Both the position numbers and the translations under genes were made by a program. Below the pieces are notes generated by a model. The model did not search any database, had not been told where the DNA came from, and saw nothing but the letters and a program-made list of their open reading frames with translations. From Acidobacteriota bacterium (GTDB taxonomy: Bacteria; Acidobacteriota; UBA6911; JACQSX01), in assembly GCA_036507075.1 (NCBI GenBank), contig DASXQR010000148.1, forward strand, positions 1 through 42,993: 42,993 nt of DNA, written 5' to 3'. This document shows, in pieces, positions 1 to 42,184 of this stretch (position 1 is the first letter of the stretch; each line of letters opens with the position of its first letter).

Positions 1-1
1 T

Positions 2-142
2 GCCACGAAGGCACGAAGACACGAAGAATCGCTATTCATTTTTAAGTGAAACTTCTCATAACTCGATTCAGATTGGCGGAGAAGTGGCACTTCTAATTCA
101 ATCGTTGTCCTTTGTGTCTTCGTGGCTTCGTGTCTTCGTGGC
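2..142. repeat. Inverted-repeat hairpin element, (CACGAAGN)n 8-mer arm family, copy 1
   Basis: Left arm gccacgaaggcacgaagacacgaag (2-26), right arm ctttgtgtcttcgtggcttcgtgtcttcgtggc (110-142), AT-rich spacer. May extend beyond the window start. Confidence 0.9.
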
Positions 143-167
143 TAATCCTCGTTCGTGGCTGATCGAG

Positions 168-1076
168 TTACAGAATCTTCTTGCCAAAGACCGATGCGCA
201 TAGCTCGACGGCCAGTTGCGCGGTGGCGTTGCGCTCATCCAGGATTGGGTTTACTTCTACAATATCGAAGGCGAGCATCCGACCCGAATCTGCCAGAATC
301 TCCATTGCCAGGTGGCTCTCGCGATAAGTGATTCCGCCCCACACCGGAGTGCCCACACCGGGCGCCTCGGTCGGATCCAGCAGGTCAAGATCCAGACTTA
401 CATGAAAACCCGCCGTGCCCTCTGAGGCCAGCGTGATGGCTTTCTCCATCACTCCGCGCATTCCAATCTCATCGATCTCTCGCATGGTGAAAACATGAAT
501 TTTGCTGTTGCGGATCATCTCCCGTTCCAGCGGATCCAGGTCGCGCGCGCCGATGAGAACTGTGTTCTGGGGACGCGCCTTCTCTTTGAAGTCTCCGATT
601 GCCGACAGGGCATCGGGCCCGTACCCAAGGATCGCCGCCAGCGGCATGCCGTGGATGTTCCCCGTGGGACTTGTTTCAGGCGTGTTCATGTCACCATGCG
701 CATCCATCCAGATCAGGCCAATGCGCTCGTTTTTTTGCCTGTAGTATTTGGAAACCCCGGCGATGCTGCCGATGGATATGGAATGGTCTCCTCCAAGGAT
801 CACCGGAGTTGTTCCGTCGCGCATCATGGCAACCACTTTCTCGCACAGGTGCGCGCAGACTTCGGAAACCTCGGCCATGAAGCGCTGCTTGGTTTCTCCT
901 ACCGGGTGGGTTTCAGGGACCGATACATGAAGATTGCCAAGGTCCTGGACGGCGTATCCCAGGTCCCGCAGCCGCTCATTCAGACCGGCGATGCGGATGG
1001 CGGAAGGTCCCATGTCGACGCCGCGGCGACCGGAGCCAAAATCGAGCGGGGCGCCGATGATATTTATCTTCTTCAT
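168..1076 (-). CDS. rocF: Arginase
   Basis: Ureohydrolase motifs GGDHS, DAHGD, SLDLDLLDP..APGVGTP; the N-terminal GAPLDFGSGRRGVDMGP is typical of bacterial arginases. Confidence 0.93.
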   Translation of the reverse strand: MKKINIIGAPLDFGSGRRGVDMGPSAIRIAGLNERLRDLGYAVQDLGNLHVSVPETHPVGETKQRFMAEVSEVCAHLCEKVVAMMRDGTTPVILGGDHSISIGSIAGVSKYYRQKNERIGLIWMDAHGDMNTPETSPTGNIHGMPLAAILGYGPDALSAIGDFKEKARPQNTVLIGARDLDPLEREMIRNSKIHVFTMREIDEIGMRGVMEKAITLASEGTAGFHVSLDLDLLDPTEAPGVGTPVWGGITYRESHLAMEILADSGRMLAFDIVEVNPILDERNATAQLAVELCASVFGKKIL

Positions 1077-1104
1077 CGCCGCTCATTCTGCCACAAAGAG
1101 GATT

Positions 1105-1239
1105 GCCACGAAGTCACGAAGACACGAAGGATTGGTATTTGTTGTGAAGTGACACTTTGGCAAAGACGACGTTAAGTGTTTGGAATAGTGGTACTTCCAA
1201 ATAAATTCATGGATCTTCGTGCCATCGTGTCTTCGTGGC
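1105..1239. repeat. Inverted-repeat hairpin element, (CACGAAGN)n family, copy 2
   Basis: Arms gccacgaagtcacgaagacacgaag (1105-1129) and cttcgtgccatcgtgtcttcgtggc (1215-1239). Confidence 0.9.
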
Positions 1240-1268
1240 GGAACACTGTGGGAACGGAGCCGGCAAAC

Positions 1269-1304
1269 AAAAAAGCCCCAAAACTTGCCTTCAAGTTCCG
1301 GGGC
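1269..1304 (-). terminator. Rho-independent terminator
   Basis: Minus strand reads gccccggaacttg-aagg-caagttttggggc followed by TTTTTT; it lies downstream of the 1446..4517 gene. Confidence 0.75.
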
Positions 1305-1445
1305 CCTTCACTGCTGTACGACCGTGCTGTAGCGGCACGTCCTCGACATGATACGAATGTGCCAAAGTGGTCAAATGTGATCAACGTCACATTTCGGGAG
1401 ATTCGACCTTATTTCGTAAAGTTCCTACAACTCAGACAAAAACTC

Positions 1446-5105: not shown

Positions 5106-5174
5106 TGGTGGGTTCTCCAATCTCTTCAGAGTCGTACGTACAGAACATATCATTATAATATGCCGCAGTGCTGT

Positions 5175-5235
5175 TTTGTGCCTTCGTGCCTTGATGGTTC
5201 AGATCCCGACACCAAGGAACCAGGACACCATCAAG
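5175..5235. repeat. Degenerate tail-to-head mini hairpin of the CACNAAG arm family
   Basis: tttgtgccttcgtgccttgatggt, ~11 nt, then caccaaggaaccaggacaccatcaag. Confidence 0.55.
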
Positions 5236-6572: not shown

Positions 6573-6885
6573 CTCCGTGCCCTCTGTCCCGGCCGTAGGC
6601 CGCAACCAAAGAAAAAGCCGAGGAAGGTCACGTGCACGTGCACGTCAACGATAGACGTCAACGTCCACGCTCACGAAGAAAAAATCGCAGTTTGTAACGC
6701 ATCGTGTCAATGTTGACCAAAATGATTATGCGCTAAATCTGCCAAGCAGCTTGGACGTGTTCCGTGGACATTGACGTGCACGTGGACGTAGACGATAAAC
6801 GTCGACGTTGACGTGATCGGATGTCTTCTGAAATCTTGTCGAAAAAACAAGAAGTTGCCAACTTGTTACGCAGAGGACGCCGGGA
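6573..6885. mobile_element. Nested non-autonomous element: a GCCGCAACCAA-ended insert carrying a 6-mer (NACGTN)n inverted-repeat hairpin, inside a CACAGAGG-type arm pair
   Basis: Outer ctccgtgccctctgt (6573-6587) and acgcagaggacgccggga (6868-6885); left end cggcc-gta-ggccg-caaccaaa (6590-6610); inner arms ~6629-6675 and ~6762-6816; right end aaatcttgtcgaaaaaacaagaagttgccaacttg (6831-6865), homologous to 22805-22838. Confidence 0.65.
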
Positions 6886-9312: not shown

Positions 9313-9329
9313 AACTTCAGCCGATCCTT

Positions 9330-9517
9330 TTCAAATGCGGATTTGGGAATGCGGAATGGAGAATGTGGAATGGGGAACGGAATGTGGAATACGGAATGCG
9401 GAATGCGGAATATATCCGCGTCACTTTTCGAAGCCGAGGGACAAATCACTCCTCATTCCGCTTTCTCCATTCCGCATTCCGCATTCACCATTCAGCATTC
9501 CCCATTCCGCATTTGAA
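9330..9517. repeat. Inverted-repeat hairpin element, (GCGGAAT)n 7-mer family with TTCAAATGCGGA termini
   Basis: ttcaaatgcgga...(gcggaat)n, spacer, (attccgc)n...tccgcatttgaa. Confidence 0.9.
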
Positions 9518-11448: not shown

Positions 11449-11696
11449 AGCCGAGCCGCGCGCCAGCAAAGGTCATTGGTCATTGGTCATTCGTCATTGG
11501 TTGTCATTGGTCATTCGTCCATTGGTAGTCATTGGTGATTAGTCATTAGTCGTGCAGTGGTCATTATGAAAGTGCAGGCGCTTGATGCCTTGGTTGCAAA
11601 AAATTTGAGCCACCGAGGCGCAAAGACAGTTTTCCAAAATGACGAATGACCAATGACCAATGACGAATGACCAATGACTAATGACGAATGACCTTT
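11449..11696. repeat. Inverted-repeat hairpin element, (GTCATTG)n 7-mer family, with a nested CACNAAG mini hairpin
   Basis: aaaggtcattggtcattggtcattcg... (from 11468) and ...aatgaccaatgactaatgacgaatgaccttt (to 11696); the lead-in agccgagccgcgcgccagc is shared with the 42054-42184 element; inner cttgatgccttggttgc...gccaccgaggcgcaaag at 11581-11628. Confidence 0.88.
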
Positions 11697-13779: not shown

Positions 13780-13863
13780 AAGCCTCCTGTACGACTTCCC
13801 CTCACGCGAGCAAGGAATTTAGCACAGCCAGACGGCGCCGGTCAAAAGTCGGTTTCCGCTTCA

Positions 13864-28503: not shown

Positions 28504-28514
28504 TCTTTTCAGGC

Positions 28515-28706
28515 CTACTCTTCCTCAGTAATCTCGAAGTTAATCAGCTTCTGCCCCACTTCCTGCATCGCAATATAGGTGGATTTGCGCGACTTTGTTT
28601 CAAGTCGGGCCCGAGCCCCGTTCTGCAACTGCTTGGCACGCTCTGCGGCCACCAGAATGTAACGAAATTTGCTGTCCATATTGTCAGGTAACTTTGTTGC
28701 CACCAT
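28515..28706 (-). CDS. rpoZ: RNA polymerase omega subunit
   Basis: DSKFRYILVAAERAKQLQNGA...K.TYIAMQEV; gmk-rpoZ-coaBC synteny. Confidence 0.93.
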   Translation of the reverse strand: MVATKLPDNMDSKFRYILVAAERAKQLQNGARARLETKSRKSTYIAMQEVGQKLINFEITEEE

Positions 28707-28724
28707 TATTTTTCGGCCTCCATA

Positions 28725-29351: not shown

Positions 29352-30222
29352 TCTGCACCTGCTCTCTGAGCTTCTCGACTTCAGCTTTAAGCAGAACCCC
29401 CAGCTCAGAGATTTTGTGATGCAAACTTTTTGAAAGGATAGTGTTGGATTCCCGATTCATCTCCTGAAGAAGAAAATCCAGCTTCTTGCCTACTTCCCTG
29501 CCCTGGGTGACCAGGTCTCGAAACTGCCCGAAGTGGCTGCGCAGCCTCGTGATTTCCTCCGTGATATCTCCGCGCTCCGCAAACATGACAACTTCCTGGC
29601 TGATCCTGTCGTGATCGATATGAACCGAATCCAGATGTTCCTGAAGCCGTTGTCCCAGCCGGTCCCGGAACGCCTGTTTGCCGGGCTCGATGTAAGATTC
29701 AATGCCGCTCAACAGTTTCTGCGATTCGTCCAGTCGAGTGAGGAGCTCTTCGGCCAGCAGCCGGCCTTCCTCGATGCGCATCTGATTGACCGCAGCCAGC
29801 GTCTGTGAAAGTCCGCCGCGCATCTGCTGTTGAAAGTTTTCCGCGTCGCGCGAAAATGACGGGGTGCGAAGCTCGAGTACCCCGGGAAGCTGCAGCACCG
29901 TCCCGAAGGTCAGCTCGCCGTCAATCCGAAACTCTTCCTTTAACGCGTCTGCAAGCGCTTTGTACGAAGCGACGACTTCGCGGTTGATCTGGTACAGTCC
30001 CGCCTCGGTGGTCTGCAGGTTGACAAACACTTCCACCCGGCCGCGAATCACCTGCTCTTTCACCACAGACCTGACAAACATCTCCAGGTGCTGCAGCTCC
30101 TTGGGAAGACGGACATTGATATCCAGGAAGCGGCTGTTGAAGGTTTTGATTTCCAGGGTGATGCGGTAATCAGGGCCTGAGAATTCACTCTGGCCGAAAC
30201 CGGTCATGCTGCGCAGAGCCAT
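29341..30222 (-). CDS. yicC: YicC/YloC family endoribonuclease
   Basis: SMTGFG, N.RFLD, RGRVEV, DITEEITRL.SH, GKKLDFLLQEMNRE.NTI.SK, EKLREQVQNVE. Confidence 0.95.
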   Translation of the reverse strand: MALRSMTGFGQSEFSGPDYRITLEIKTFNSRFLDINVRLPKELQHLEMFVRSVVKEQVIRGRVEVFVNLQTTEAGLYQINREVVASYKALADALKEEFRIDGELTFGTVLQLPGVLELRTPSFSRDAENFQQQMRGGLSQTLAAVNQMRIEEGRLLAEELLTRLDESQKLLSGIESYIEPGKQAFRDRLGQRLQEHLDSVHIDHDRISQEVVMFAERGDITEEITRLRSHFGQFRDLVTQGREVGKKLDFLLQEMNRESNTILSKSLHHKISELGVLLKAEVEKLREQVQNVE

Positions 30223-30228
30223 GGTGTG

Positions 30229-32055
30229 TTATTTTAGAAGATGCAGGGACTTTAAGGCCGGAATGCTGCCATCGTCAACATCGTGGAACTGCATCCGGTA
30301 AAGCCTCTTATACTGCCCATCCACGCCTACCAAATCATCGTGTGAGCCCTGCTCGATGATCTCGCCCTTTTCCAGCACGACGATCCGGTCGGCACGCCGA
30401 ACGGTTGAAAGTCGATGTGCGATCACCAGCGTAGTCCGGCCGCGCATCAAGTTTTGCAGCGCCATCTGCACGAGCTTTTCCGATTCGGTGTCCAGCGAAC
30501 TGGTGGCTTCGTCCAGAATGAGCACCGGCGCGTTCTTCAGCAGGGCCCGCGCGATAGCCATCCGCTGGCGCTGGCCTCCCGACAGGCGCTGGCCCCGCTC
30601 GCCGATCACCGTGTCATAACCGCCGGGAAGCTGGAGGACGAAATCATGGATCCAGGCCGCGCGCGCGGCCCGTTCGATCACTTCCTGCGAAATATCGCTG
30701 ATGCCGTAGGCGATGTTGTTCCTGACCGTGTCATTGAAGAGAAAAGTCTCCTGCGTCACGATGCTGACCTGGCTGCGCAGGGAGGCGACGGTGACATCGC
30801 GAATATCAACGCCATCAAACGTTATTTTTCCCGTCGTCACATCATAGAAGCGGGGAATCAGGTTTACCAGAGTCGATTTGCCGGCGCCGCTGCTGCCTAC
30901 CAAAGCAATCATTTCTCCTGCTGAAATCTTGAGATTGATCTGCTTCAGGATCGGCTCGGACCGTTCTCCATCGCCATATTTGAACTCCACATTGCAAAAT
31001 TCAATCTCTTGCCGCAAAGGCTCAATCACCACGGCGTCGGGTTTGTCGCGGACCTCAAGATGAGTCTCCAGGAGATCAAAAATTCTGGAGGAAGAAGCAA
31101 AGGCCTGCTGCATGTGCAGGTGCAATTTGCTCAACCGCCGCAGCGGATCGTAGAGACGAAAGAGCGCAACCAGAAAAACCACGAAAGATCCGAGAGTGAG
31201 GGTCTGGTGGTTCATCTTTACCTGCGCGTAAATCAGCAGCGGAACAAATGCAAGGTAGCCCAGAAACTCCATCACAGGCGAATTCATGGCTGTTACAACG
31301 GTAGACCGCATGTTCGTGCGCATCAGGCTGCGGGTAGACCGCTGAAACTTCTGGTTTTCAAAATCCTCCATTCCGAATGCCTTCACCACGCGGATGCCGG
31401 TAATGGACTCCTGCAGGAGATTGGAGATGGAGGCGATCTTTTCCTGGCTGTTCCAACTGATCTTTCTCATTTTTCTGCCAAAAGTCCCGGTGAGCACGGC
31501 CACCAGGGGGGCCAGCACAAACGCGATAATGGCCAACTTCCAGTCCGTCCACAGTACGATGGAAAGAAAGACCAGCAGCAGAATTGCCTGCCGGAGAAGA
31601 TCGGCAAGCGTCTTGGAAACAGTCTCCTGGATTCTTTCCACGTCGGTAATCACGCGCGACATCAGCTTGCCGGTGGAAGTGCGATTGAAAAAACCGACGG
31701 ACTGATCCAGCAGATGAGCGTATAAGCGGTTTCGCAACTGCATGACAACCCGCTGTCCTGCGTAGCCCATCAGATATTCGGCAATGAAGAGGAAAACGCC
31801 TTTTAACAGGGAAAAGACAATCAACCAGATTGAGATCTGTACCAGGGTGATCCGGCCTAAATGAAGCCACCGATCCAGGAAGTGAAAGATTCCCGCGCCT
31901 CCGGAGCGCGTCCCCGGCAGAACATCGAAGATCGGCTGGAGCAAAACGGTGGTGAGGCCTTCCATTACTCCACTCAGCAGCAGGGACCCGAGCGCCAGCA
32001 CGAGCAGGCCAAGATTGGGCCGGATGTAAGGAAGGAGCTTCTTGAAATCTTTCAT
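30229..32055 (-). CDS. msbA: MsbA-like ABC exporter (permease + ATPase)
   Basis: Multi-helix transmembrane domain, GSSGAGKSTL Walker A, LSGGQRQR signature, LILDEATSSLD.ESE. Substrate assignment is by similarity only. Confidence 0.82.
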   Translation of the reverse strand: MKDFKKLLPYIRPNLGLLVLALGSLLLSGVMEGLTTVLLQPIFDVLPGTRSGGAGIFHFLDRWLHLGRITLVQISIWLIVFSLLKGVFLFIAEYLMGYAGQRVVMQLRNRLYAHLLDQSVGFFNRTSTGKLMSRVITDVERIQETVSKTLADLLRQAILLLVFLSIVLWTDWKLAIIAFVLAPLVAVLTGTFGRKMRKISWNSQEKIASISNLLQESITGIRVVKAFGMEDFENQKFQRSTRSLMRTNMRSTVVTAMNSPVMEFLGYLAFVPLLIYAQVKMNHQTLTLGSFVVFLVALFRLYDPLRRLSKLHLHMQQAFASSSRIFDLLETHLEVRDKPDAVVIEPLRQEIEFCNVEFKYGDGERSEPILKQINLKISAGEMIALVGSSGAGKSTLVNLIPRFYDVTTGKITFDGVDIRDVTVASLRSQVSIVTQETFLFNDTVRNNIAYGISDISQEVIERAARAAWIHDFVLQLPGGYDTVIGERGQRLSGGQRQRMAIARALLKNAPVLILDEATSSLDTESEKLVQMALQNLMRGRTTLVIAHRLSTVRRADRIVVLEKGEIIEQGSHDDLVGVDGQYKRLYRMQFHDVDDGSIPALKSLHLLK

Positions 32056-32089
32056 GCGACAGGGATTATAGCGGTTTCAGGAGGATTTT

Positions 32090-32302
32090 TCTGTGTCCTC
32101 TGTGCCTCTGTGGTAAAAAATAATCACCACAGAGGCTTAGCGCGGCGAAGCCGCAACCAAGAGTCAAGGAGAGACGGCCTGAGGGCCGTCTCTCTGCGGT
32201 GCCCTGCCAAGCTGAGACGGCCCTCAGGCCGTCTCTCCGCTCCCGAATGGTTTGCGCAGGCCGCGAAAATTCTCATGGGTAGTAGTACGGAGGGCACAGG
32301 GA
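32090..32302. mobile_element. Triple-nested element: CACAGAGG mini hairpin interrupted by a GCCGCAACCAA-ended insert that carries a REP doublet
   Basis: Host arms tctgtgtcctctgtgcctctgtggt (32090-32114) and accacagagg|gcacaggga; insert ~32136-32293 bounded by acagagg/acggagg; perfect 25-bp inverted pair at 32168-32192 and 32214-32238. Confidence 0.75.
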
Positions 32303-32362
32303 TCGGGCCTTGGCGGGAGAATTTTTTCACCCGTTTGGCCGCACAATTCGTACAATATAAAG

Positions 32363-32803
32363 ATGATCAGCAAGACCTTTAAATCACTTGCCGCCTTTGC
32401 CCTGGTTTGTTTTGTCTGCCCGGCAGTTTCCTCGATCGCGGCTGACGACGGCCAGACGCGCCATGAGCCGTTGAAGATCAGTTACACCGCCAAGGCTGTT
32501 TCCAGCGGCAAGTACACGGTGACTTTTAAGTTTGATCAAAACCCGCGCTACACCATTAACCTGAAACCCGAACCCAAGTTCGATCTGGTCAAAGGTGAAA
32601 ATTCGATCCTGAGCGGCGCCAAACTTGTGCCCGGCAACGTACCAAGAGAGGCCGGCTCGAACTATTACGGCAAGATCGAGCCGATCAATCTTGTCGTTCA
32701 GAAGATCGAAGGGCTTCAGGCGCGTTTCACTTACTTTTTCTGCTCAAAGAAAGACGGCTTCTGCGCGCGCAAGGTAGAGACCGTTGATGTCAAACTGCCA
32801 TAA
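32363..32803 (+). CDS. Secreted hypothetical protein, possibly DsbD N-terminal-like Ig fold with a C-terminal Cys pair
   Basis: Start re-called at ATG 32363; signal peptide MISKTFKSLAAFALVCFVCPAVSSIAA; C-terminal YFFCSKKDGFC. Confidence 0.6.
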   Translation: MISKTFKSLAAFALVCFVCPAVSSIAADDGQTRHEPLKISYTAKAVSSGKYTVTFKFDQNPRYTINLKPEPKFDLVKGENSILSGAKLVPGNVPREAGSNYYGKIEPINLVVQKIEGLQARFTYFFCSKKDGFCARKVETVDVKLP

Positions 32804-32814
32804 CGAAAAACTTT

Positions 32815-32968
32815 AACCGCCAAGAACGCCAAGAGCGCCAAGACCCTGATGGATCTATCCGATTCACATTGTCAAAGGGTCCAGACGAAGTAAATCCCGA
32901 CCATTCACCGGAGATCCCGTCAGACTAAGGTAATACTCTTGGCGCTCTTTGCGTTCTTGGCGGTTCAG
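32815..32968. repeat. Inverted-repeat hairpin element, (CGCCAAGAN)n family, copy 2
   Basis: aaccgccaagaacgccaagagcgccaag / cttggcgctctttgcgttcttggcggttcag; the terminal tca is the PHP gene stop. Confidence 0.92.
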
Positions 32969-33666
32969 GTCTTTTGCGGCTTCGAGGTTTGCAACCCGTG
33001 GAGTATCCGGTCCACCGCAAGCTGGCCGGTAATGCTTCCGATTTCGAGCCAGGTAAGGGGATTGCTGCGGATTTCAACGCGACCTTTTCGGATAGCGTCA
33101 CATACCGATTCTGCGGTCGGCTCAGAATCGACGAGTGAATAGGTCTTGCCAAGTTGTGACAGATGATGCACGTCCGAGTTTCCCACCACTCCTTTGCCGT
33201 TCGCTTGCGCCCACTTCCAGGCACGCCGGTTAAAGTCAATAGTGCGGGTATAGAAGTGGTTGATTTCCACCGCATCGAAAAGCTCGCGATAACGGTCCAA
33301 CAGTTCCCGAAGGCAGGAAGCACTTGGGTAGAAAGGATGCGGCGCAACTACCAGACCGTCGCAGCGGCTCTTTAGAACGGCAATTTCTTCAAAGCTGCGA
33401 ACCTGGGCCGCTTCCTCCGGGAAGTTGATCAGCAGGATGTGCTTGCCAAAGAGCGTTCTCTCCACTCCCGGCATTAGCAGCAGACCTCGGTCGCGGGCGT
33501 ATCCCTCCAGCCAGGATGATCTCAACTGGCGGTTGTGCAGCGTAATCGCCAGCACTTGATAGCCCAGGCCGGCCGCGCGGTCGATCAGGTCGGTTGCGCT
33601 ATGCGGAATGTGATCCTCGGGGTCATCGGAGGTATGCGTGTGCAGTTCAACTTTCAAAATCGCCAT
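32965..33666 (-). CDS. PHP domain metal-dependent phosphoesterase
   Basis: KVELHTHT, AITLHN, PGVE, HIL, APHPFYP, AVE, GNSDVH. Confidence 0.88.
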   Translation of the reverse strand: MAILKVELHTHTSDDPEDHIPHSATDLIDRAAGLGYQVLAITLHNRQLRSSWLEGYARDRGLLLMPGVERTLFGKHILLINFPEEAAQVRSFEEIAVLKSRCDGLVVAPHPFYPSASCLRELLDRYRELFDAVEINHFYTRTIDFNRRAWKWAQANGKGVVGNSDVHHLSQLGKTYSLVDSEPTAESVCDAIRKGRVEIRSNPLTWLEIGSITGQLAVDRILHGLQTSKPQKT

Positions 33667-33694
33667 TTCAACCAGATTCCATGATGAAAAATCT

Positions 33695-33781
33695 GAACCG
33701 CGAAGAACGCCAAGAGCGCAAAAGACCCTTAATGCAAGCTTGAGAGAAAAGTCTTGGCGTCCTTAGCGTTCTTGGCGGTTC
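33695..33781. repeat. Inverted-repeat hairpin element, (CGCCAAGAN)n family, copy 3 (short spacer)
   Basis: gaaccgcgaagaacgccaagagcgcaaaagac / gtcttggcgtccttagcgttcttggcggttc. Confidence 0.9.
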
Positions 33782-33791
33782 CATTCTTGGA

Positions 33792-35012
33792 TCAAAAGGC
33801 TTCCGACCAGGGACACAAGGGACGCGTTTCTTCGCGTTCCTTCCACTCCTTGTCAAAGTATACAAGCGCGGTTCCAAAACCTGACCGTGGTATGGAAAAT
33901 CTCAGGTCCTTGATGGAAACAACCCAGCCGTCGGACCGCTCCTTCCAATCCACAAAGGGATAGCGGGCAAAGCGCATCATTACTTTTCCGGAACAGGTCT
34001 GCAGCAGTTTCTCAAAAGGCAGGCCCTTTAGATTTTTTGAGACGATATGCACCGAAGGGACCCGGTTGTCGAACACATCAAATTGTCCGCTGTAATAGAA
34101 CTGCTGCGTGTCAAGGTAGAACGTCCACAGAAACGGGTTCCCGGCTACGGCAACAGCCGACAAGCGGGGCGGCGCGCTTTCATGCCAAAACCGTTGCCCT
34201 ACATCCGCGCGTAAATGCTGCAGGGCGCGCCGATGCAATTGCCAGCAGAAAATGTAATATGCCGAGAGGAGAACCAGTGATCCGATGGCGATCCGTTGCG
34301 ACAGGGCCGCAAGCCTCGGATGCAGTCGGCGCCGCAGCACCCACGCAATCGGTATCCAGGCAAACCAGGTCACTCGCACCACACGAAGCGGATCGACCGG
34401 CGCGCCTCGCCCGAACCACAGCACAAGCAGCGAAATCAGTCCCACGCCGATCGCCCAGAACAAGCTGCGCCGTAGGCCGCGACTGTGGACCCAGAACATC
34501 GCGGTCCCCAGGATAAGATAAATCCAGGGGTCGACGACGGCGATGAAATCGCCATAAATCCACCGCTGCGAAAACGGCCGGGCCGGTCGAACGCCGTAGG
34601 AATTGGTGTAATCAAGAAACAGGTGGCCCGCCGTGCCAATCAGCGACACAAATGCCAGATACCAGTACTTCTTTCCCCAGGGAACAGGCGCGCGCCTTAG
34701 GCTTCGACTCCATTTCAGAAACGGAAGCGGCAGTAAGAGAGCAAGCATCAAAATTCCCCAGAACGTATGCGTGTAGCCGCGGTGGTGCTCGAGATAAATG
34801 AGCCGCGCCGGAGTGGTAATGATGTCAATGTCGATGACATTGGCGGCAACGACCGACACCAGAGTGATCGCCGAGCGACATGAAGACACCGGCAGTGTCT
34901 CCGGCTGCGCAGAAGCTCCTCGCGCCGGCGCGAAAGGAGCCGGAGAAAGACCCCGATTCAAGCCAGCGTACGCCAGTGCGGCACCCAGAAGTGAGTGCGT
35001 GATGTTATCCAT
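33792..35012 (-). CDS. Membrane metal-dependent hydrolase (YdjM/YfhP-like)
   Basis: MDNITHSLLG, ANVIDID, HHRGYTHT, HLFLDYTNSYGVR, VVDPWI; several transmembrane segments; C-terminal FARYP...DLRF. Confidence 0.85.
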   Translation of the reverse strand: MDNITHSLLGAALAYAGLNRGLSPAPFAPARGASAQPETLPVSSCRSAITLVSVVAANVIDIDIITTPARLIYLEHHRGYTHTFWGILMLALLLPLPFLKWSRSLRRAPVPWGKKYWYLAFVSLIGTAGHLFLDYTNSYGVRPARPFSQRWIYGDFIAVVDPWIYLILGTAMFWVHSRGLRRSLFWAIGVGLISLLVLWFGRGAPVDPLRVVRVTWFAWIPIAWVLRRRLHPRLAALSQRIAIGSLVLLSAYYIFCWQLHRRALQHLRADVGQRFWHESAPPRLSAVAVAGNPFLWTFYLDTQQFYYSGQFDVFDNRVPSVHIVSKNLKGLPFEKLLQTCSGKVMMRFARYPFVDWKERSDGWVVSIKDLRFSIPRSGFGTALVYFDKEWKEREETRPLCPWSEAF

Positions 35013-35145
35013 AGTCGGAATTCAAAAGGAGCTGCGCTTCGAAGCGAGTCACGGTGGCCCGGGCTACCGGTCGATATTAAAAAAACCAATCATTAAAACC
35101 ATTTAAGATAACTTACCTCGACTTTACTTTGGTCGTGTTTGGCTG

Positions 35146-35175
35146 CTGACAAGTCTGAAATAAGGCTGATATACT
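35146..35175 (+). promoter_or_regulatory. Sigma70-type promoter of guaA-dnaE
   Basis: CTGACA-N18-TATACT with an extended TG; the ATG follows 9 nt after the -10. Confidence 0.55.
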
Positions 35176-35184
35176 CGGTTGAGG

Positions 35185-36726
35185 ATGCCAGCGGGACACG
35201 AGACAATCATTATTTTTGACTTCGGTTCGCAGTACACCCAATTGATTGCCCGCCGTGTCCGGGAAGCGGGAGTTTACAGCGAAATCCATCCTTATAACAG
35301 CCCGCTGGAAACCTTCCAAAACAAAAACATCAAAGGTTTCATTCTTTCCGGGGGACCGGATTCCGTCTACCAGGCAAACGCACCCAAAGGCGATCCGCGA
35401 ATTTTCGCCGACTCGGTCCCCGTGCTCGGAATCTGCTATGGGCTGCAGTGGATGGCTCACGATCAGGGCGGAGAGATCGGGCGCGGCAAGCGGCGCGAAT
35501 TTGGCCGGGCAGAACTGAACATTTTGAAGCCCAGCCTGTTGTTCGATTCCCTGCCATCCAGGTTCAACGTTTGGATGAGCCATGGTGACCATGTCGAATC
35601 GCTCCCTCCCGGTTATGATGTTTTGGCCCAGACCGGAGACATCATTTCCGCAGCCCAGCATCGAGAACGGCCGCTTTACGGAATCCAGTTCCATCCCGAA
35701 GTCGTCCACAGCGAAAACGGAGCTCAGATTTTAAGGAACTTCCTCTTTAAGGTTTGCACCTGTACGGCCGATTGGACCGTGGGCTCCTACATCGACCAGG
35801 CGGTCGGAAATATCCGTTCGACAGTCGGCTCGGGCCGGGCCGTCTGCGCATTGAGCGGCGGCGTCGATTCCACGGTGGCAGCAGTGCTCGTCGATCGGGC
35901 CATCGGCGATCGACTTATCTGCGTGTTCGTCGACAACGGATTGCTGCGTAAAAATGAGTCCGAAGAAGTCTTGCAGCGATTTCGCGACAAGCTGAAGTTG
36001 AATGTCATCGGAATCGACGCGCGCGCGAACTTTTTGTCCAGACTCGAAGGGGTTTCCGATCCCGAGGAGAAGCGCAGAATCATCGGAGAGGAATTTATCC
36101 GCATCTTCGAGCGCGAATCAAACAAGCTTGGAAACGTGGACTTCCTCGTTCAGGGGACTCTCTACCCGGACGTGATTGAATCGGTTTCCGTGCGTGGACC
36201 TTCGGTCGTGATTAAGACCCATCACAATGTGGGCGGTTTGCCCGAAAAGATGGACCTGAAGCTCATCGAGCCGCTGCGGGAACTGTTCAAAGACGAGGTA
36301 CGCCAGGTGGGACGCGAGCTTGGTTTGGATGCCGAATTGCTTCAGCGACAGCCGTTTCCCGGCCCCGGTCTCGCCGTCCGGGTTCTCGGTCCCGTTTCCG
36401 AAGAGCGACTGCACATTCTCAGGGAAGCCGACAAAATTGTAGATCAGGAAATTCGGGCGGCCGGTCTGTATGAAGAAATCTGGCAGTCTTTCGCGGTGTT
36501 GCTTCCCGTCAGCAGCGTTGGAGTGATGGGCGATTATCGTACATATGAAAATGTCATCGCGGTGCGCGCCGTGCACAGCCAGGACGGAATGACCGCAGAC
36601 TGGGTCCACCTGCCCTATCCACTGCTTTCCCGATTGTCGAGCCGAATCGTAAACGAAGTGCGCGGAGTGAACCGGGTCGTGTACGACATCAGCTCCAAAC
36701 CCCCCAGCACGATTGAATGGGAGTGA
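35185..36726 (+). CDS. guaA: GMP synthase (glutamine-hydrolyzing)
   Basis: [64 protein letters not shown]. Confidence 0.98.
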
Positions 36727-36731
36727 ATGGG

Positions 36732-39700
36732 TTGTCCGATTTTGTCCATCTTCATCTCCATTCCGACTACAGCCTGCTCGACGGTGCATGCAAAATCAGC
36801 GCCCTGGTTGAAAGAGCAAAAGCGCTGGGGATGGATTCACTGGCGATCACCGACCATGGAAATCTCTTCGGGGCGGTCGAATTCCATGACGCCGCGCTGG
36901 CTGCCGGGATAAACCCTATTATCGGCTGCGAGGTTTACGTCGCTCGCGAAAGCCGCCTCAGCCGCAACGGCAGGTCTGATAACAGCAATCACCTGGTGCT
37001 TCTCGCCAGAAACACCATCGGCTATCACAATCTGATCAAGCTGGTCTCGGCCGGATTCATCGAAGGCTTCTACTACAAGCCTCGGGTGGACAAGGAACTG
37101 CTTGCCCGCCACAGCGAGGGCCTGACGGCCCTGAGCGCGTGTCTCAAGGGTTCCGTTGCCTCGCACCTGATGCAGGACGAGACGGACGCGGCAGTCGGGG
37201 AAGCGGGAAGCTATCAGGACATTTTCGGCCGGGAGAATTTTTATCTGGAACTGCAGGACCATGGACTGGACGCGCAGCGAAAAGTAAACAGCGCCCTTTT
37301 GGAACTCTCGCGCAAGACAGGCGCCCCTCTGGTGGCCACCAACGACTGTCATTACATTTCCCGCGAAGATTCCTTTGCCCACGAAGTGCTTCTCTGCATT
37401 CAGACCGGCAAGACCATCAACGATGCCAACCGCATGAAATATGCGGCCGAGCAGTTCTACCTGAAGTCCTACGACGAGATGCTGCGCTCATTCGGCGACG
37501 CGAAAGACGCGCTGCTGCGCACCCGGGAGATTGCCGAACAATGCCAATTTCGCATGGAGAAGGGCAAGATCCTGCTTCCCGCTTTTCAGGTTCCTCCCGG
37601 CTACACCGTCGACACCTTTTTGGAAGAGGTGGTCCGCAAAGGCTTCGAAGAACGGCTTTTGGAATGGAAGCGCCTTCAGAATCTGGGAAAGCTGCGCAAT
37701 CCGATCTCCGTCTACGAAGAGCGTGTGAACCGCGAAATTCAAATCATCAAGCAAACGCAATTCCCGAGCTACTTTCTGATCGTCTGGGATTTCATCCGGT
37801 TTGCCCGGGAGCGCGGCATTCCAGTGGGACCGGGTCGCGGCAGCGCCACCGGCAGCCTGGTCTCCTATTGCCTGCGCATCACCGATTTGGATCCGCTTCA
37901 ATACGACCTGCTTTTCGAAAGGTTCCTCAATCCCGAACGGGTCACTCCGCCGGACATCGACATCGATTTCTGCATGAACCGGCGAAATGAAGTGATCGAT
38001 TACGTGATGAACAAGTACGGCCGGGAGAATGTCTCGCAGATCATCACTTTCGGCACCATGGCAGCCCGCGGCGTGATCCGCGACGCGGGACGCGGTTTGA
38101 ACATCCCTTACGCCGAAGTGGACCGCATTGCCAAGCTGGTTCCCCTGGCGCTCGATACCACTCTGGACAAGGCACTCTCCGCCGTCCCTGAACTGCGCCA
38201 GATGCAGCAGGACACGCGTTATCGGCAGTTGATCGAGGTGGCACAGCGACTGGAAGGGATGGCGCGCCATGCTTCCACGCACGCCGCCGGCGTGGTGATC
38301 GCGCCCAAGCCGCTTACCGAATACGTGCCCCTATACCGGTCAAACAGAGACGAAATCATGACGCAGTACTGCATGACCGACCTGGAAAAGCTCGGCCTGC
38401 TGAAAATGGACTTCCTGGCGCTCACCACGCTCACCGTACTGCAGGATACGATCAAACGTGTCCGGGAGGAGCTGAGAGTGTCGGTCGACTGGACGGCTCT
38501 CGGGCTTGAAGATCCGGAAACATTTCGTCTGTTTTGCGAAGGCCGCACTTCCGGCGTGTTCCAGTTTGAAAGCGGCGGGATGCGCGACATCCTGCGCCGC
38601 CTCAAGCCGGATCGTTTTGAGGACCTGATCGCGTTGAACGCCCTCTACCGGCCGGGACCGATCCAGGGTGGAATGATCGACGAGTACATCAAGGGACGCC
38701 ACGGGAAAGAGGTGCGCTACGAGCTGCCGCAACTGGAGGAGATTCTGCGCGAGACCTACGGCGTGATCGTATACCAGGAACAGGTGATGCAGATCGCCAG
38801 CCGGCTGGCCGGTTTTTCACTGGGAGAAGCGGACCTGCTGCGCCGCGCCATGGGAAAGAAGAAGGCCGACGTAATGCAGGCGCAGCGCGAAAAGTTCATC
38901 AGCGGCGCCCGAGCCAACGGCATCCAGGACAAAAAGGCGGGCAAGATTTTCGACTTGATGGAGCAGTTCGCCAGCTACGGATTTCCCAAGGCGCACAGCG
39001 CCGCTTATGCGCTGGTGGCCTATCAAACCGCTTACCTGAAAGTCCATTACCCCGTCCAGTTCATGGCCGCCATGCTCACTTGCGAAATGGACAAGAGCGA
39101 CAAGATGGTCAAGCACCTGCTCGAATGCAAAGAAATGGGAATTGAAGTGCATCCGCCGGACATCGATTCCAGCGAGATATTCTTCAAATCTGCGCAGGAC
39201 AAGATCATCTTCGGCCTTGCCGGCATTAAGAACGTCGGGGAGACGGCCATCCGCAGCATTCTCCAATCGCGGCAGGACAAAGGCCGCTTTACATCTTTTT
39301 TTGATTTCTGCGAGCGGGTAGACCTGCGCATGGTCAACAAGCGCGTGATCGAGAGTCTGGTCAAAGCGGGCGCTTTCGATAAATTGAGCCAGGGACGCGC
39401 CCGCATGTTTCTTTCCATCGACCGCGCCATGGAACACGCTCAGAAGTCACAGAAGGACCGCGAAAGCGGGCAGACCAATCTATTCGGAATGATGCAAACC
39501 CCGGACACCGCCGGCGGCGATGACCTGGTTCCGGCCGACGAATGGATTGAGGCGGAGCGACTGGCGTTTGAAAAGGAGACGCTCGGCTTTTACGTCACCG
39601 GTCACCCGCTGAAGAAATACGAGCAGGAAATCAAGTATTTCACCAGCGCCATGGCTGCGCATATCGGGGAAGAAACGGCTGGAAGTGAAGTGACGCTGGC

Positions 39701-40193
39701 CGGCATGATCACCTCGCTTCGAAAGATGCAGACCAGGAAGGGAGATACGATGGCCGTATTTCAGCTCGAAGATCTTACGGGCACTCTTGAAGTGATCGCT
39801 TTTCCGCAGGTGTATGAGCGTTCGGCTGCGCTGCTGCTGACCGATTCGGCCATTCTGCTCAAGGGTCGCTGCGAATACGACGAGACGGCCCGCGCGCGCA
39901 TTCTTGCCTCCGAGATTCGCTCTTTGAAAAACGTCTGGGACCGGGGCATAGCGTCGCTTAAGGTGAAAATCCCGCTGGAGCGGGTCACATCCGACTTTGT
40001 CAGCAGGCTGAAGACTACCGTGGAGCAATATCCGGGCGAATGTGACCTGGAGTTCGAACTCTTGCAATACAGCGATTACCGGCTCATACTATTTCCCCTG
40101 CAAATGAAAATCCATGCTTCGGCCGAAGTATTGGGAACACTGGGTAAGATCTGCGGGCAGGATTCCATTTCCGTGATCTGCAGAACTCAATAA
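36732..40193 (+). CDS. dnaE: DNA polymerase III alpha subunit
   Basis: FVHLHLHSDYSLLDGA PHP domain, GPGRGSATGSLV, PDIDIDF, KMDFL, C-terminal OB fold. Start is probably TTG 36732 (alternatives 36717, 36723). No intein-sized insertion. Confidence 0.97.
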   Translation: MSDFVHLHLHSDYSLLDGACKISALVERAKALGMDSLAITDHGNLFGAVEFHDAALAAGINPIIGCEVYVARESRLSRNGRSDNSNHLVLLARNTIGYHNLIKLVSAGFIEGFYYKPRVDKELLARHSEGLTALSACLKGSVASHLMQDETDAAVGEAGSYQDIFGRENFYLELQDHGLDAQRKVNSALLELSRKTGAPLVATNDCHYISREDSFAHEVLLCIQTGKTINDANRMKYAAEQFYLKSYDEMLRSFGDAKDALLRTREIAEQCQFRMEKGKILLPAFQVPPGYTVDTFLEEVVRKGFEERLLEWKRLQNLGKLRNPISVYEERVNREIQIIKQTQFPSYFLIVWDFIRFARERGIPVGPGRGSATGSLVSYCLRITDLDPLQYDLLFERFLNPERVTPPDIDIDFCMNRRNEVIDYVMNKYGRENVSQIITFGTMAARGVIRDAGRGLNIPYAEVDRIAKLVPLALDTTLDKALSAVPELRQMQQDTRYRQLIEVAQRLEGMARHASTHAAGVVIAPKPLTEYVPLYRSNRDEIMTQYCMTDLEKLGLLKMDFLALTTLTVLQDTIKRVREELRVSVDWTALGLEDPETFRLFCEGRTSGVFQFESGGMRDILRRLKPDRFEDLIALNALYRPGPIQGGMIDEYIKGRHGKEVRYELPQLEEILRETYGVIVYQEQVMQIASRLAGFSLGEADLLRRAMGKKKADVMQAQREKFISGARANGIQDKKAGKIFDLMEQFASYGFPKAHSAAYALVAYQTAYLKVHYPVQFMAAMLTCEMDKSDKMVKHLLECKEMGIEVHPPDIDSSEIFFKSAQDKIIFGLAGIKNVGETAIRSILQSRQDKGRFTSFFDFCERVDLRMVNKRVIESLVKAGAFDKLSQGRARMFLSIDRAMEHAQKSQKDRESGQTNLFGMMQTPDTAGGDDLVPADEWIEAERLAFEKETLGFYVTGHPLKKYEQEIKYFTSAMAAHIGEETAGSEVTLAGMITSLRKMQTRKGDTMAVFQLEDLTGTLEVIAFPQVYERSAALLLTDSAILLKGRCEYDETARARILASEIRSLKNVWDRGIASLKVKIPLERVTSDFVSRLKTTVEQYPGECDLEFELLQYSDYRLILFPLQMKIHASAEVLGTLGKICGQDSISVICRTQ

Positions 40194-40216
40194 CAAAGTT
40201 TGCTCATGAAAGCTTC

Positions 40217-40359
40217 ACCACAAAGACACAAAGGACACAAGGGGGACGCGGGGAAGGCAGAGGTCAGTCAGCTTCAATAAATCGTCGATATATCTCATCT
40301 TTGATAGCTGACCTCTGCCTGCCCCGCGTCCCCCTTTGTGTTCTTTGTGCCTTTGTGGT
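40217..40359. repeat. Composite long hairpin: (CACAAAGR)n outer arms plus GGGGACGCGGGG-AGGCAGAGGTCAG inner arms
   Basis: Near-perfect ~50-bp inverted arms with a ~40-nt AT-rich loop, between dnaE and accA. Confidence 0.9.
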
Positions 40360-40370
40360 TAAACGTTCTT

Positions 40371-41324
40371 ATGAACGACTTCGAGCGCAGTATTGCCGAG
40401 CTGAAAGAGAAAATCGAGGATTTTGAGACCCGCAATGTCGCCGAGGATCAAGAGGTTGAATTGCGGACAATGCGCGCGCAGCTCGAAGAATTGCAGCGCC
40501 AGCTTCAGGATGATGCTTCAAGGAATCTGGACGCCTGGGAGAGGACTCTGCTCGCACGCCATGAGCAGCGGCCGTATACGCTCGACATTATCGGGCACAT
40601 CTTTCAGGACTTCACCGAAATCCACGGAGATCGAAAATATCACGACGATCCGGCAATGGTCTGCGGCTTGGCTTTTTTTGACGGAAAGCCCGCCGTCATC
40701 ATCGGGCAGCAGAAAGGCCGAAACATGAAGCAGCGGATCTATCGCAACTACGGCATGCCCAAGCCGGAAGGTTACCGCAAGGCTATTCGCGTCATGAAAC
40801 TGGCCGATAAATTCGGCCTTCCGATCTTCTGCTTTGTGGATACTCCCGGCGCCTATCCGGGAATCGGCGCCGAGGAAAGGGGACAGGCGGAAGCTATCGC
40901 CTATAACCTGCGCGAAATGGCAAAGCTGCAAACGCCGGTCATAGTCACGATCGTGGGCGAAGGCGGCAGCGGTGGAGCGCTGGCTATCGGTGTGGGCGAT
41001 CGGGTTTTGATGCTGGAGAATTCGATCTACTCGGTGATTGCGCCGGAAAGCTGCTCGGCGATTCTGTGGAAGGACCAGCTGCACGCGCGGGAGGCGGCCA
41101 ACAACCTTCGCTTGTCGGCGCCCGACCTGTTTCGATTCCAGTTGGTCGATGAAATCGTGCCCGAACCGCCCGGTGGAGCGCATACGGACCATCGCAAGAC
41201 GTCGACTATACTGGCCGAACGCCTGAGATTTCATCTTTCCGAACTGGAAACCATGAGCGCCGGCGAGCGGGTCAATAGGCGCTACGAGAAGTTTCGGAAA
41301 ATGGGATCCTTTGCCCACTGTTAG
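40371..41324 (+). CDS. accA: Acetyl-CoA carboxylase carboxyltransferase alpha subunit
   Basis: ARH..RPYTLD, HGDR...DDPA, GMPKPEGYRKA.R, DTPGAYPG.GAEERGQ, GEGGSGGAL. Start re-called at ATG 40371, since the upstream GTG lies in the repeat arm. Confidence 0.97.
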   Translation: MNDFERSIAELKEKIEDFETRNVAEDQEVELRTMRAQLEELQRQLQDDASRNLDAWERTLLARHEQRPYTLDIIGHIFQDFTEIHGDRKYHDDPAMVCGLAFFDGKPAVIIGQQKGRNMKQRIYRNYGMPKPEGYRKAIRVMKLADKFGLPIFCFVDTPGAYPGIGAEERGQAEAIAYNLREMAKLQTPVIVTIVGEGGSGGALAIGVGDRVLMLENSIYSVIAPESCSAILWKDQLHAREAANNLRLSAPDLFRFQLVDEIVPEPPGGAHTDHRKTSTILAERLRFHLSELETMSAGERVNRRYEKFRKMGSFAHC

Positions 41325-41332
41325 ATCGTCGC

Positions 41333-41553
41333 CCAAATCCGAACCGCGCGCGTCCTTCAAATGCGGATTTCGGAATGCGGAATGCGGAATAAAAGCTGTC
41401 AGTGGTCCGTAGTCGGTGGTCCGTTGTTCGTGGTCCATTATTCGCTAGGTGATCACGTAGCCATGCACACAACTGGCTACGGACCACCGACCACGGACAA
41501 TTATTCCGCATTCCAAAATCCGCATTTGAACGACGCGCGCGGTTCGGATTTGG
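41333..41553. repeat. Nested hairpin element: long near-perfect terminal inverted repeats with (GCGGAAT)n arms enclosing (GTGGTCC/GTAGTCG)n arms
   Basis: ccaaatccgaaccgcgcgcgtc-c-ttcaaatgcggattt-c-ggaatgcggaat / attccgcattcc-a-aaatccgcatttgaa-c-gacgcgcgcggttcggatttgg; inner arms ~41397-41437 and ~41471-41499. Confidence 0.92.
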
Positions 41554-41570
41554 TTCGTAATTAACGAAAT

Positions 41571-42047
41571 ATGGAAAACTTAACCACGCGATTTGCCGCT
41601 GACGTGATGCTGGGCCGGCTGGCTCGATGGCTGAGGGCGGCCGGGCTGGATGTCAGCTATGACAACTCCTTTAGCGATGATCAACTGGTGCAGATTTTTC
41701 TGAGGGAAAAGCGCTGGATCATCACGCGCGACCGCGGTCTGGTGAAAAGGAGAATCCTGCAGCGCGCCGTGCTTTTGGAAACGGACCTGATCGAGGATCA
41801 GCTCCAGGAATTTTTTGTAAAGACCCGTTTCGTTCTCGACAGCCATTCGCTGCAGCCCTTCTCGAGGTGCATCGAATGCAACCTTTTGCTTGATTCTGTT
41901 CCGGCACACTCGGTACAAGCAGAGGTTCCACCCTACGTTTTTGCCACGCAGCAAAAATTTAAACGCTGCTCTGCCTGCCATAAAATCTACTGGGCCGGAA
42001 CCCACCGCGCAAAAATCCAGGCGATGCTGGAAAGGGCACAGTTGTAG
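41571..42047 (+). CDS. Mut7-C RNase (PIN-fold, DUF82) domain protein
   Basis: FAADVMLGRLARWLRAAGLD, IITRDRGL, FSRCIECN, F.RCSAC.KIYWAGTH. Confidence 0.92.
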   Translation: MENLTTRFAADVMLGRLARWLRAAGLDVSYDNSFSDDQLVQIFLREKRWIITRDRGLVKRRILQRAVLLETDLIEDQLQEFFVKTRFVLDSHSLQPFSRCIECNLLLDSVPAHSVQAEVPPYVFATQQKFKRCSACHKIYWAGTHRAKIQAMLERAQL

Positions 42048-42053
42048 CTATCA

Positions 42054-42184
42054 GCAGCCGAGCGCAAGTTCCCGCGATCAGCATCCGCGAATAATGGGAA
42101 CCTGGCTTGAACTTCCACTCAGCATAACCGATGACTAATGACTAGTGACCAATGGAAATTGCTGACACGCGCAGGCTCGGCTGC
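42054..42184. repeat. Degenerate copy of the (GTCATTG)n family with GCAGCCGAGC termini
   Basis: gcagccgagc / gctcggctgc 10-bp inverted repeat; gatgactaatgactagtgaccaatg arm; the right end reverse-complements to the 11449-11480 lead-in. Confidence 0.7.

Follow-up and report, generated by a model that had tools for sequence, protein, structure and literature searches.

Intergenic hairpins built from short tandem repeats recur along a 42,993-nucleotide contig of an Acidobacteriota bacterium (the whole stretch that was analysed, hereafter the window), and they raise the question of what moves such elements. A preliminary description of the same DNA had claimed about 19 repeat-bearing intergenic regions and no mobilizing gene. 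We counted 19, with all of its named unit families present, and found no match to IVP, GxxExxY or Y1 transposase on the contig, no transposase or recombinase among 18 window ORFs scanned in Pfam, and no Rfam match in the window. On balance we lean towards the view that the hairpins are dispersed gene-less, likely emptied copies of one-gene cassettes, and that during competence the cargo proteins of these cassettes likely place copies at further gene junctions.

Hairpin elements in the window and across the genome

When folded as DNA, 16 of 20 stretches were stable at z <= -4 relative to shuffles, the remaining four (5170, 15964, 22731 and 42129) being degenerate or single arms. The elements outside the CACGT series are as follows (no strand is assigned unless given).

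1-143: empty element, TGCCACGAAG arms (GxxExxY-type 8-mer), at the contig end; in a 64-copy internal family
1104-1239: empty, arms of TGCCACGAAG; matches the 64-copy internal family more weakly (E 2e-5)
5170-5232: degenerate back-to-back CACCAAG/CACGAAG-type pair, folding no better than shuffles
9329-9517: empty, with GCGGAAT heptamers as arms and TTCAAATGCGGA at the ends; period of IVP type
11462-11693: empty element, GTCATTG heptamer arms, with a small nested 8-mer hairpin
13863-14180: empty element, CGGGTT arms, with TCGAA[AG]G-type arms nested within
15965-16029: ATTCGTGTA array with a short partner only, unpaired in the arm pairing (z -2.9)
19606-19638: REP-like GGGGACAG hairpin (by eye), a separate system; the same kind flanks a RAYT-like gene on contig C163
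19660-19786: empty, arms of TGCCACGAAG; a further member of the 64-copy internal family
22733-22796, plus strand: lone AAGGCRG arm between convergent genes, no partner
25287-25489: empty element in the udg-priA gap, outer TGAAGGGG and inner GGAAT arms; 14 gap positions in one strain contig
26160-26208: CACAAAG pair, back to back, between era and udg
28332-28503: empty, between rpoZ and coaBC, with the 9-mer AACCGCCAAG as arm unit; the relatives' site is empty
32089-32300: back-to-back CACAGAG pair, its right arm split by a second insert
32136-32286, plus strand: nested insert (CTTAGCGCGGCGA...TAGTAGT) with a GAGACGGCC REP-like doublet; 31 such starts genome-wide
32814-32968: empty element, AACCGCCAAG arms
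33694-33780: short empty element, AACCGCGAAG/CGCCAAG arms
40215-40360: empty, between dnaE and accA, arms of TTCACCACAAAG; member of the internal family with 48 copies
41355-41531: empty, arms of GCGGAAT; a GTGGTCC element is nested inside at 41397-41498
42130-42154, plus strand: lone short ATGACTA arm, no partner

Some elements of the window have opposite polarity, with their ends back to back (for example 26160 and 32089), and several are nested composites (6590-6822, 13863, 32089 and 41355). The termini that had been described as shared proved exact for the 26-nt identity between 1 and 19661 and for TTCAAATGCGGA at 9330 and 41356, while the ends of CGCCAAG type (28333, 32815 and 33695) are related variants and not identical.

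The 19 regions are part of a much larger set: about 1,225 short elements with paired arms are spread over the genome, make up 3.2% of it and are nearly all intergenic (only 13 of the 1,225 lie deep within called genes). Arrays of period 6-10 number 112 in 280 kb of real sequence versus 2 in its shuffle. Internal sequences form common families of 64, 48, 42, 39 and fewer members, and together with family-specific termini they bear out the earlier claim of dispersed copies rather than local slippage. A terminal consensus for 11 families consists of tandem units ending in, for example, TTTGCCAC, TTCACCAC, TGAACCGC or TCAAATGCGG; in heptamer families the ends are fuzzy. Flanking repeats equalled the control in 339 elements of the CACGAAG/CACAAAG and CGCCAAG families, giving no sign of target duplication there. 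Elements start 0-10 nt past stop codons and occupy 251 of 721 convergent, 646 of 2,679 co-directional and 170 of 689 divergent gaps, a mild convergent excess. Where ends stand back to back, the gap between them is fixed at 11-15 nt; circular permutation of such elements was considered and, by eye, was not borne out by their flanks.

At orthologous sites, the rpoZ-coaBC element was missing in 19 of 19 relatives, and the era-udg gap measured 74 bp here versus 2 bp in the single readable relative. Arm hits range from 0 to 668 per genome within one class, and arm length varies between strains. The earlier reading of the elements as mobile DNA is supported by their dispersal and by the empty orthologous site. 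Movement itself was not observed: four soil runs compared over 23100-42993 showed no clean empty allele, these being of the same or a near-identical strain, or fragments, and one of them possibly the source, and no spacer pair was at least 99% identical.

Cargo genes and emptied cassettes

The suspicion that such arms flank IVP-like and GxxExxY genes elsewhere was confirmed at all 13 genome loci, seven with a four-helix-bundle IVP gene and six with GxxExxY. The cassettes are of two kinds, one carrying an IVP gene with 7-base-repeat arms on either side and the other a GxxExxY gene, of probable nuclease fold, between CAC/CGC arms of 8-9 bases. All seven IVP loci are full or broken cassettes with protein-coding genes as flanks, none of them in the window save a remnant. 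Arm type goes with protein family across phyla: IVP loci in relatives had period 7-8 arrays in 29 of 29 cases and CAC/CGC-type arms in 0 of 29, and GxxExxY loci had CAC/CGC-type arms in 90 of 106. A GxxExxY gene was present in 14 of 19 genomes with at least two GxxExxY-type arm hits versus 10 of 41 with fewer, counts in which kin are not independent; two genomes with 200 and 113 such hits (G162 and G165) nonetheless had no GxxExxY match. No convincing other cargo emerged from 64 arm pairings with 230-1100-nt spacers, the long ones spanning unrelated host genes, and loci fetched by six internal-family profiles contained no cargo genes. In GxxExxY, E73-x-K75 is invariant and D63 nearly so, and PD-(D/E)xK nucleases top its fold comparison at a middling level (best Z 8.0, rmsd 3.1 over 95 residues, Foldseek E 0.02). 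For IVP we know of no catalytic site.

Descent from a cassette can be followed most closely in the CACGT series, which is represented in the window by four features.

6590-6612, plus strand: end of a separate carrier insert of GGCCGCAACC type, which precedes most CACGT-series copies
6628-6815, plus strand: CACGT-armed element, an IVP cassette with an internal deletion; belongs to a set of 16 related copies
6675-6690, plus strand: competence-type promoter-like motif, upstream half only; the downstream half is deleted, and sister copies keep both
6698-6736, plus strand: IVP gene remnant, the final 12 codons and stop (E 3e-4; 8 of 10 aligned residues equal the intact IVP of contig C37)

Taken as a whole site, the half motif scores -3.2 bits. 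Four of the 16 copies have a further deletion in common, and since the IVP codons lie within a deletion series of this size, at least the CACGT family consists of emptied cassettes. Elsewhere, the IVP cassette of C231 also has a truncated copy, and C152 and C17 hold truncated genes within intact arms. Spacers matched a cargo protein in 16 of 837 cases versus 6 for shuffles, which establishes descent for one family and a few single copies; the claim of empty forms therefore holds for the CACGT family, and for most families it rests on arm type. As the series mostly lies behind a carrier end, the carrier may account for its spread.

Competence-type motif in the genome and its relatives

A promoter-like motif precedes comEA, comEC, comF, comM, dprA, ssb, recA, radC and a prepilin gene in this genome. 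Scored with a matrix built from 12 Pfam-confirmed host genes, the same motif stands before 11 of the 13 cassettes (6/7 IVP and 5/6 GxxExxY, at 17-41 bits) and at 10 of 12 HUH (Y1) transposase loci, against a background of 67 in 4,214 gene upstreams at 12 bits or more, training genes included. Column-shuffled matrices gave 2, 6 and 0 sites versus 58 for the real one. An SOS motif was considered and rejected, as the scores of lexA and of two uvrA genes are negative. We regard an ECF sigma factor encoded on contig C17 as the candidate regulator. Pneumococcal ComX and SigH head late-competence regulons with a comparable gene set; the present set differs in its motif, in having an ECF sigma candidate and in including selfish cassettes. 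The predicted promoter common to cassettes and DNA-uptake genes is new here, as is the CACGT deletion series that we read from the sequence. For a soil lineage that is uncultured, the result provides a predicted competence regulon together with a candidate sigma factor.

Relatives were scored with host-only, leave-genome-out matrices. Their cassettes carried the host lineage's own motif variant at 23 of 55 cargo loci and cross-matched at 1 of 55, the other 32 loci within the class falling below threshold. In family f6 the own-type motif was found at 12 of 29 loci and the other type at 1 of 29; outside f6 the corresponding values were 11 of 26 and, for the f6 type, 0 of 26. Control ORFs, from which 66 comM, recA or recA-operon-leader rows had been excluded, gave 0 of 94 and 4 of 148, three of those four being of the same excluded type and missed by the filter. 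A third variant was seen by eye at one cargo locus of family f13, and f6 dprA has yet another motif, which also stands before one f6 IVP gene. This tracking of the host variant by the cassettes indicates in which condition activity could be sought.

The single-genome matrix fails across lineages because spacing and motif differ by lineage: it recovered 1 of 30 GxxExxY loci in the phylum (the genome's own) and 1 of 30 dprA loci at 12 bits or more. In other phyla and classes, no common motif was seen by eye in 26 comM, 22 dprA and 29 IVP upstreams; there, cassettes mostly begin directly behind the host stop codon, which leaves most of them no room for a promoter. A sigma-54-type motif was also considered and is unsupported in those lineages (1/29 IVP and 1/22 dprA upstreams).

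Possible modes of spread and relation to known systems

Since the cassettes and the host's DNA-uptake genes stand under the same motif, the cassettes likely spread during DNA uptake. In the scheme we favour, a competence sigma factor would read the motif as a promoter, and the IVP and GxxExxY proteins would recognise, in trans, arms of the type that flanks their own genes; the substrate would be incoming single-stranded DNA folded to a hairpin, which may be cut by GxxExxY or chaperoned by IVP before the host's recombination functions help to join it to the chromosome. Natural transformation is usually regarded as purging selfish DNA. Judged from their upstream sequences, three small selfish cassette kinds in one genome appear to use the host's DNA-uptake promoter.

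The arms could instead come from cassettes and be moved by HUH (Y1/RAYT-like) transposases with the competence promoter, or by a hairpin-targeting carrier insert, with IVP and GxxExxY as passengers. We consider this unlikely, even though the motif at Y1 loci, the position of the CACGT series behind a carrier end, the REP-like hairpins nested in arm elements and the lack of large target duplications with IS200/IS605-family enzymes (PMC2817692; this and the other articles cited are represented by portions of their text) all speak for it. The preliminary description had proposed looking for RAYT/HUH genes flanked by the arms, and the Y1 loci read turned out to have GC-rich REP-type repeats of their own as flanks, not microsatellite arms. 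Moreover, the genome with 200 arm hits, which is 90% complete, has no Y1 match at E <= 1e-10, the host motif occurs at 0 of 7 f6 Y1 loci, and arm type goes with IVP versus GxxExxY.

Somewhat less probable still is that the cargo proteins bias transformation, shielding filled alleles from purging or cutting empty ones, whether incoming or resident, without any new insertion, and that spread between sites occurs by rare host recombination at the arms. The motif evidence from cassettes and host applies equally to this possibility, some nucleases of mobile elements are known to attack transforming DNA (PMC12378983), and the GxxExxY fold is nuclease-like, not that of an integrase or transposase; bias alone, however, leaves unexplained more than 1,000 unrelated sites with crisp family-specific ends and the fixed back-to-back junction gap. 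We give least weight to host-kept RNA signals (terminators, stabilisers or RNase III sites) growing by slippage, to which the cassettes would be incidental. Stable hairpins just past stop codons, the convergent excess, arm length differences between strains and the cutting of Coxiella IVS stems by RNase III (PMC4990558) would suit such signals, but slippage accounts for unit number only, and the empty site in all 19 relatives, the spread in hits per genome within one class, the common internal sequences, the gene remnants and the occurrence in divergent gaps all argue against them.

Beyond copying by cargo proteins in this genome, we put forward more tentatively a class of transposase-free mobile DNA, in which microsatellite-armed hairpins would be copied in trans on transforming single-stranded DNA by IVP and GxxExxY, two large orphan protein families with genes wired into the host's competence regulon, orphan heptamer repeats would be the empty forms, and ORF-bearing 23S intervening sequences (IVSs) the forms landed in rRNA. 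Three old puzzles would then fall under one test, namely IVP/GxxExxY function, the origin of bacterial heptamer repeats and the spread of rRNA intervening sequences. Our literature search, with most subscription papers and all supplements outside its scope, found none joining the arms to IVP, GxxExxY or competence. The cassettes share their protein family with the 23S rRNA IVS carrying an S23p/IVP ORF in Coxiella burnetii (PF05635, TIGR02436; PDB 2gsc, 2rld), which also resembles them in a terminal complementary stem and tandem heptamers ahead of the ORF (PMC4990558); they differ in lying outside rRNA genes at many junctions, in their own promoter-like motif and in hundreds of gene-less copies. 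Avd of diversity-generating retroelements, a reported structural homologue of PF05635 (PMC10053308), suggests nucleic-acid chaperoning; no reverse transcriptase or template repeat occurred within the cassettes read.

Cyanobacterial STRRs are comparable orphan repeats. Intergenic heptamer arrays are likewise formed by inverted GGGAATC pairs in Xanthomonas (70-75 convergent pairs per genome) and GGGGA(T/C)T in Nostoc (PMC4692102), and by TAACTGA in Beggiatoaceae (PMC4679880). These two papers found no mobile-element link for the repeats, with IVP terms absent from the Xanthomonas text and our search terms from the Beggiatoa text; the present repeats differ in comprising a dozen unit families side by side and in their ties to cargo genes. 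MITEs are similar as short elements with terminal inverted repeats that arise by internal deletion from an element with a gene, but here target duplication does not exceed control and the gene of the parent element does not encode a DDE transposase. Similar in organisation are REP/BIME/REPIN-RAYT systems, with abundant extragenic hairpins, few repeat-flanked gene-bearing masters and no target duplication (PMC2817692). In contrast to REPs as defined there, the arms are tandem 7-9-mers rather than a GT(A/G)G head with a short GC-rich palindrome, and they enclose an IVP or a GxxExxY gene, none of the Y1 loci read being flanked by these arms. As a separate observation, the Y1 unit of C85 itself sits inserted within a GGAAT arm.

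Arm-paired elements in the window and across the genome

The source genome (6.1 Mb, 56% GC, 96% complete) contains 3209 merged arrays of short tandem repeats, of which 2177 can be matched to an inverted partner. The resulting pairings number 1324, and 1225 of them have spacers of at most 230 nt, a count that takes nested elements separately. Arm-paired elements make up 3.2% of the genome, with 13 of the 1225 deep inside genes by our own gene calls, and occupy 251/721 convergent, 646/2679 co-directional and 170/689 divergent gaps. Their starts are most frequent between 2 nt ahead of a stop codon and 10 nt past it. Within the window, where the preliminary description had reported about 19 intergenic repeat regions with shared ends and no mobilizing gene, we counted 19 such regions, the shared ends were exact or close variants of each other, and 16 of 20 stretches folded far better than shuffles. 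The adjoining genes are housekeeping genes; the contig (C148) has no match to IVP (four-helix bundle, PF05635), GxxExxY or Y1 (HUH, RAYT/IS200-like transposase), and no mobility gene was found among the 18 ORFs scanned in Pfam (the others were named from their translations), in agreement with that description. An Rfam search of the window gave no match. The repeat system is real rather than an artefact, and its earlier interpretation is supported. Further features of the window are as follows.

29-107, 1133-1209 and 19689-19761: 64-copy internal family (94 profile hits) in which a palindromic GAAGTGnCACTT word, resembling a protein-binding site, is kept twice
14256-15963: Ku gene, then a MerR-HTH/TPR gene, adjoining the CGGGTT element; no ligase D gene is adjacent in the window
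25153-25380: the alignment to a contig from another run has 14 gap positions over the GGAAT arm, as would fit a between-strain length difference of two heptamer units
32136-32286: 150-bp insert of a type with 31 starts genome-wide, placed at one fixed spot within CACAGAG arms and carrying a GAGACGGCC REP-like doublet that resembles those beside RAYT pseudogenes on contigs C17 and C82

Termini are specific to each arm family. Shared families (64, 48, 42, 39, 35, 30, 23 and smaller) account for 448 of the 849 spacers and the other 401 are singletons, with best matches 70-99% identical and none above; direct repeats flanking 339 elements were at the level of a random control. The elements were very likely dispersed by copying. 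The number of matches to one arm pattern differs widely among 61 genomes of the class, from none to 668 per genome. At rpoZ-coaBC, an orthologous site singled out earlier for comparison, the gap is ~200 bp here. The rpoZ frame was read in 11 of the 19 relatives, where the gap measures -2 to 12 nt; in the remaining 8 it leaves no room for an element. Since all 19 relatives lacking the element belong to other genera, this shows lineage-specific gain and not recent movement. Back-to-back ends lie at an 11-15-nt gap in 45/52 CACAAAG and 68/72 CACCAAG junctions, a tightness expected of an end-to-end junction or dimer site, although this is only a hint.

Cargo genes and probable emptied cassettes

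The suggested association of such arms with IVP and GxxExxY genes held throughout this genome: arms flank 7/7 IVP and 6/6 GxxExxY loci, intact or broken, and the 13 loci mostly have a different arm family each. Arm type follows protein family, with period 7-8 arms at 29/29 IVP loci and CAC/CGC-type arms at 0/29, while the latter occur at 18/26 GxxExxY loci in the class and 72/80 across phyla. Sorted by arm type, the empty elements comprise 648 of IVP type, 541 of GxxExxY type and 36 others. The element at 6628-6815 retains RIVSMLTKMIMR followed by a stop, which corresponds to how the intact IVP gene on contig C37 ends. It belongs to a deletion series of 16 copies that join the arm and the promoter-like motif directly to the final 12-20 IVP codons. 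A further deletion is common to four of the 16, including this one. Copies thus multiplied after gene loss. Judged from these sequences, descent from an IVP cassette is direct for this one family. Two observations limit this: most copies of the series come after the end of a separate insert, the carrier, and cargo-protein matches were found in only 16 of 837 spacers versus 6 for shuffles. The empty elements in general very likely derive from cassettes.

A competence-type motif, and how the elements may move

The motif first seen before cargo genes also stands before host genes, and a matrix built from seven sites outside the cargo loci recovered 58 sites of at least 17 bits versus 2, 6 and 0 for shuffled matrices. 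Among 22 scanned proteins downstream of motif sites, Pfam recognised SSB, RecA, prepilin, ComEA-type HhH, ComM, DprA, ComF-type, ComEC, RadC, RecG, RecQ, UvrD, an ERCC4 nuclease, a Y1 transposase and a TPR/zinc-finger protein, with no family for 7; lexA and both uvrA genes of the genome lack the motif. This gene set matches a late-competence regulon as known from established work. Two features suggest a promoter: the motif has a two-block form and lies a few bases ahead of start codons. With a 12-host-gene matrix (at least 17 bits; background 67/4214 gene upstreams at 12 bits or more, training genes included), it precedes 6/7 IVP, 5/6 GxxExxY and 10/12 Y1 loci, the missed cargo loci being two broken copies, and it is very likely a competence promoter. 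The genes at the 12 Y1 loci are RAYT-like or IS200-like and of several distinct kinds, and each is accompanied by REP-type hairpins of its own. Other motif-linked genes (L010 on C28, L003 on C48, L009 on C97, L008 on C87 and L017 on C192) encode the ERCC4 nuclease, flanked by two coiled-coil genes, and four proteins without Pfam match, three of which, all but L008, were also scanned in NCBIfam, again with no match.

In the reading that we consider slightly more likely than not, cassettes would be the gene-bearing forms of the elements, switched on during competence, and each cassette's protein, working in trans, would target its own type of arm in incoming single-stranded DNA. That the cargo proteins are the mobilisers has roughly an even chance. 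The GxxExxY structure is predicted confidently (pLDDT 96), and the model shows middling similarity to Cas4, Hjc and other PD-(D/E)xK proteins; IVP corresponds to the family of 2gsc, for which homology to Avd has been reported (PMC10053308). Mobilisation by HUH transposases or by the carrier insert would fit the motif at most Y1 loci of this genome and the fact that most deletion-series copies come after the end of the carrier, but in family f6 of the same class the host motif precedes 0/7 Y1 genes, and we consider such mobilisation unlikely. It is less likely again that cargo proteins bias natural transformation without inserting elements, and improbable that the hairpins are host RNA signals.

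In its workings the system resembles those of REPIN/RAYT and MITEs, yet it does not pass the defining tests of either. The Coxiella IVS (PMC4990558) shares the protein and a heptamer stem but sits in rRNA, whereas the elements here lie outside it; Xanthomonas heptamer inverted pairs are described without function in PMC4692102. We found no account of arm-cargo pairing or its competence link in the largely open-access literature searched. The elements are a variety of the hairpin-repeat-plus-helper-gene kind and may, with fair probability, represent a new class.

Motif variants in relatives and candidate sigma factors

The comM and recA genes of relatives bear lineage variants of the motif. Cargo genes carried their own host-lineage variant in 12/29 cases versus 1/29 for the other type in f6, and in 11/26 versus 0/26 for the f6 type in other families (control ORFs 0/94 and 4/148), with one or two best loci taken per genome and kin not independent. 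Outside the class, no shared cargo-host motif was seen, and cassettes are mostly promoterless, directly behind a host stop codon. A small test for sigma-54-type promoters in other lineages gave one hit each among 29 IVP and 22 dprA upstreams and so did not support them. GxxExxY cassettes directly follow the apparent 3' end of comM, as judged by eye, and dprA, as judged by coordinates (L058; G001:C383:8760-10006), a possible co-expression route for GxxExxY genes without their own promoter.

Several f6 genomes (L074-L095) have a second motif, GGAAATA-N12-CGAAACA, before dprA, unlike f6 comM and recA, which use GCTCA...TT[AG]GATA; the two motifs possibly reflect two competence sigma factors. On contig C17 (L328:360-2121), an XRE regulator, an ECF sigma and a zinc-finger/TPR anti-sigma-like gene lie together, with the competence-type motif in the 3' end of the sigma gene and divergently upstream. 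For 8 of 12 best orthologues in relatives, the locus holds a motif match of at least 11 bits, mostly antisense or divergent, and homologues are weak in f6, which has the other motif. We regard this ECF sigma as a candidate competence sigma factor.
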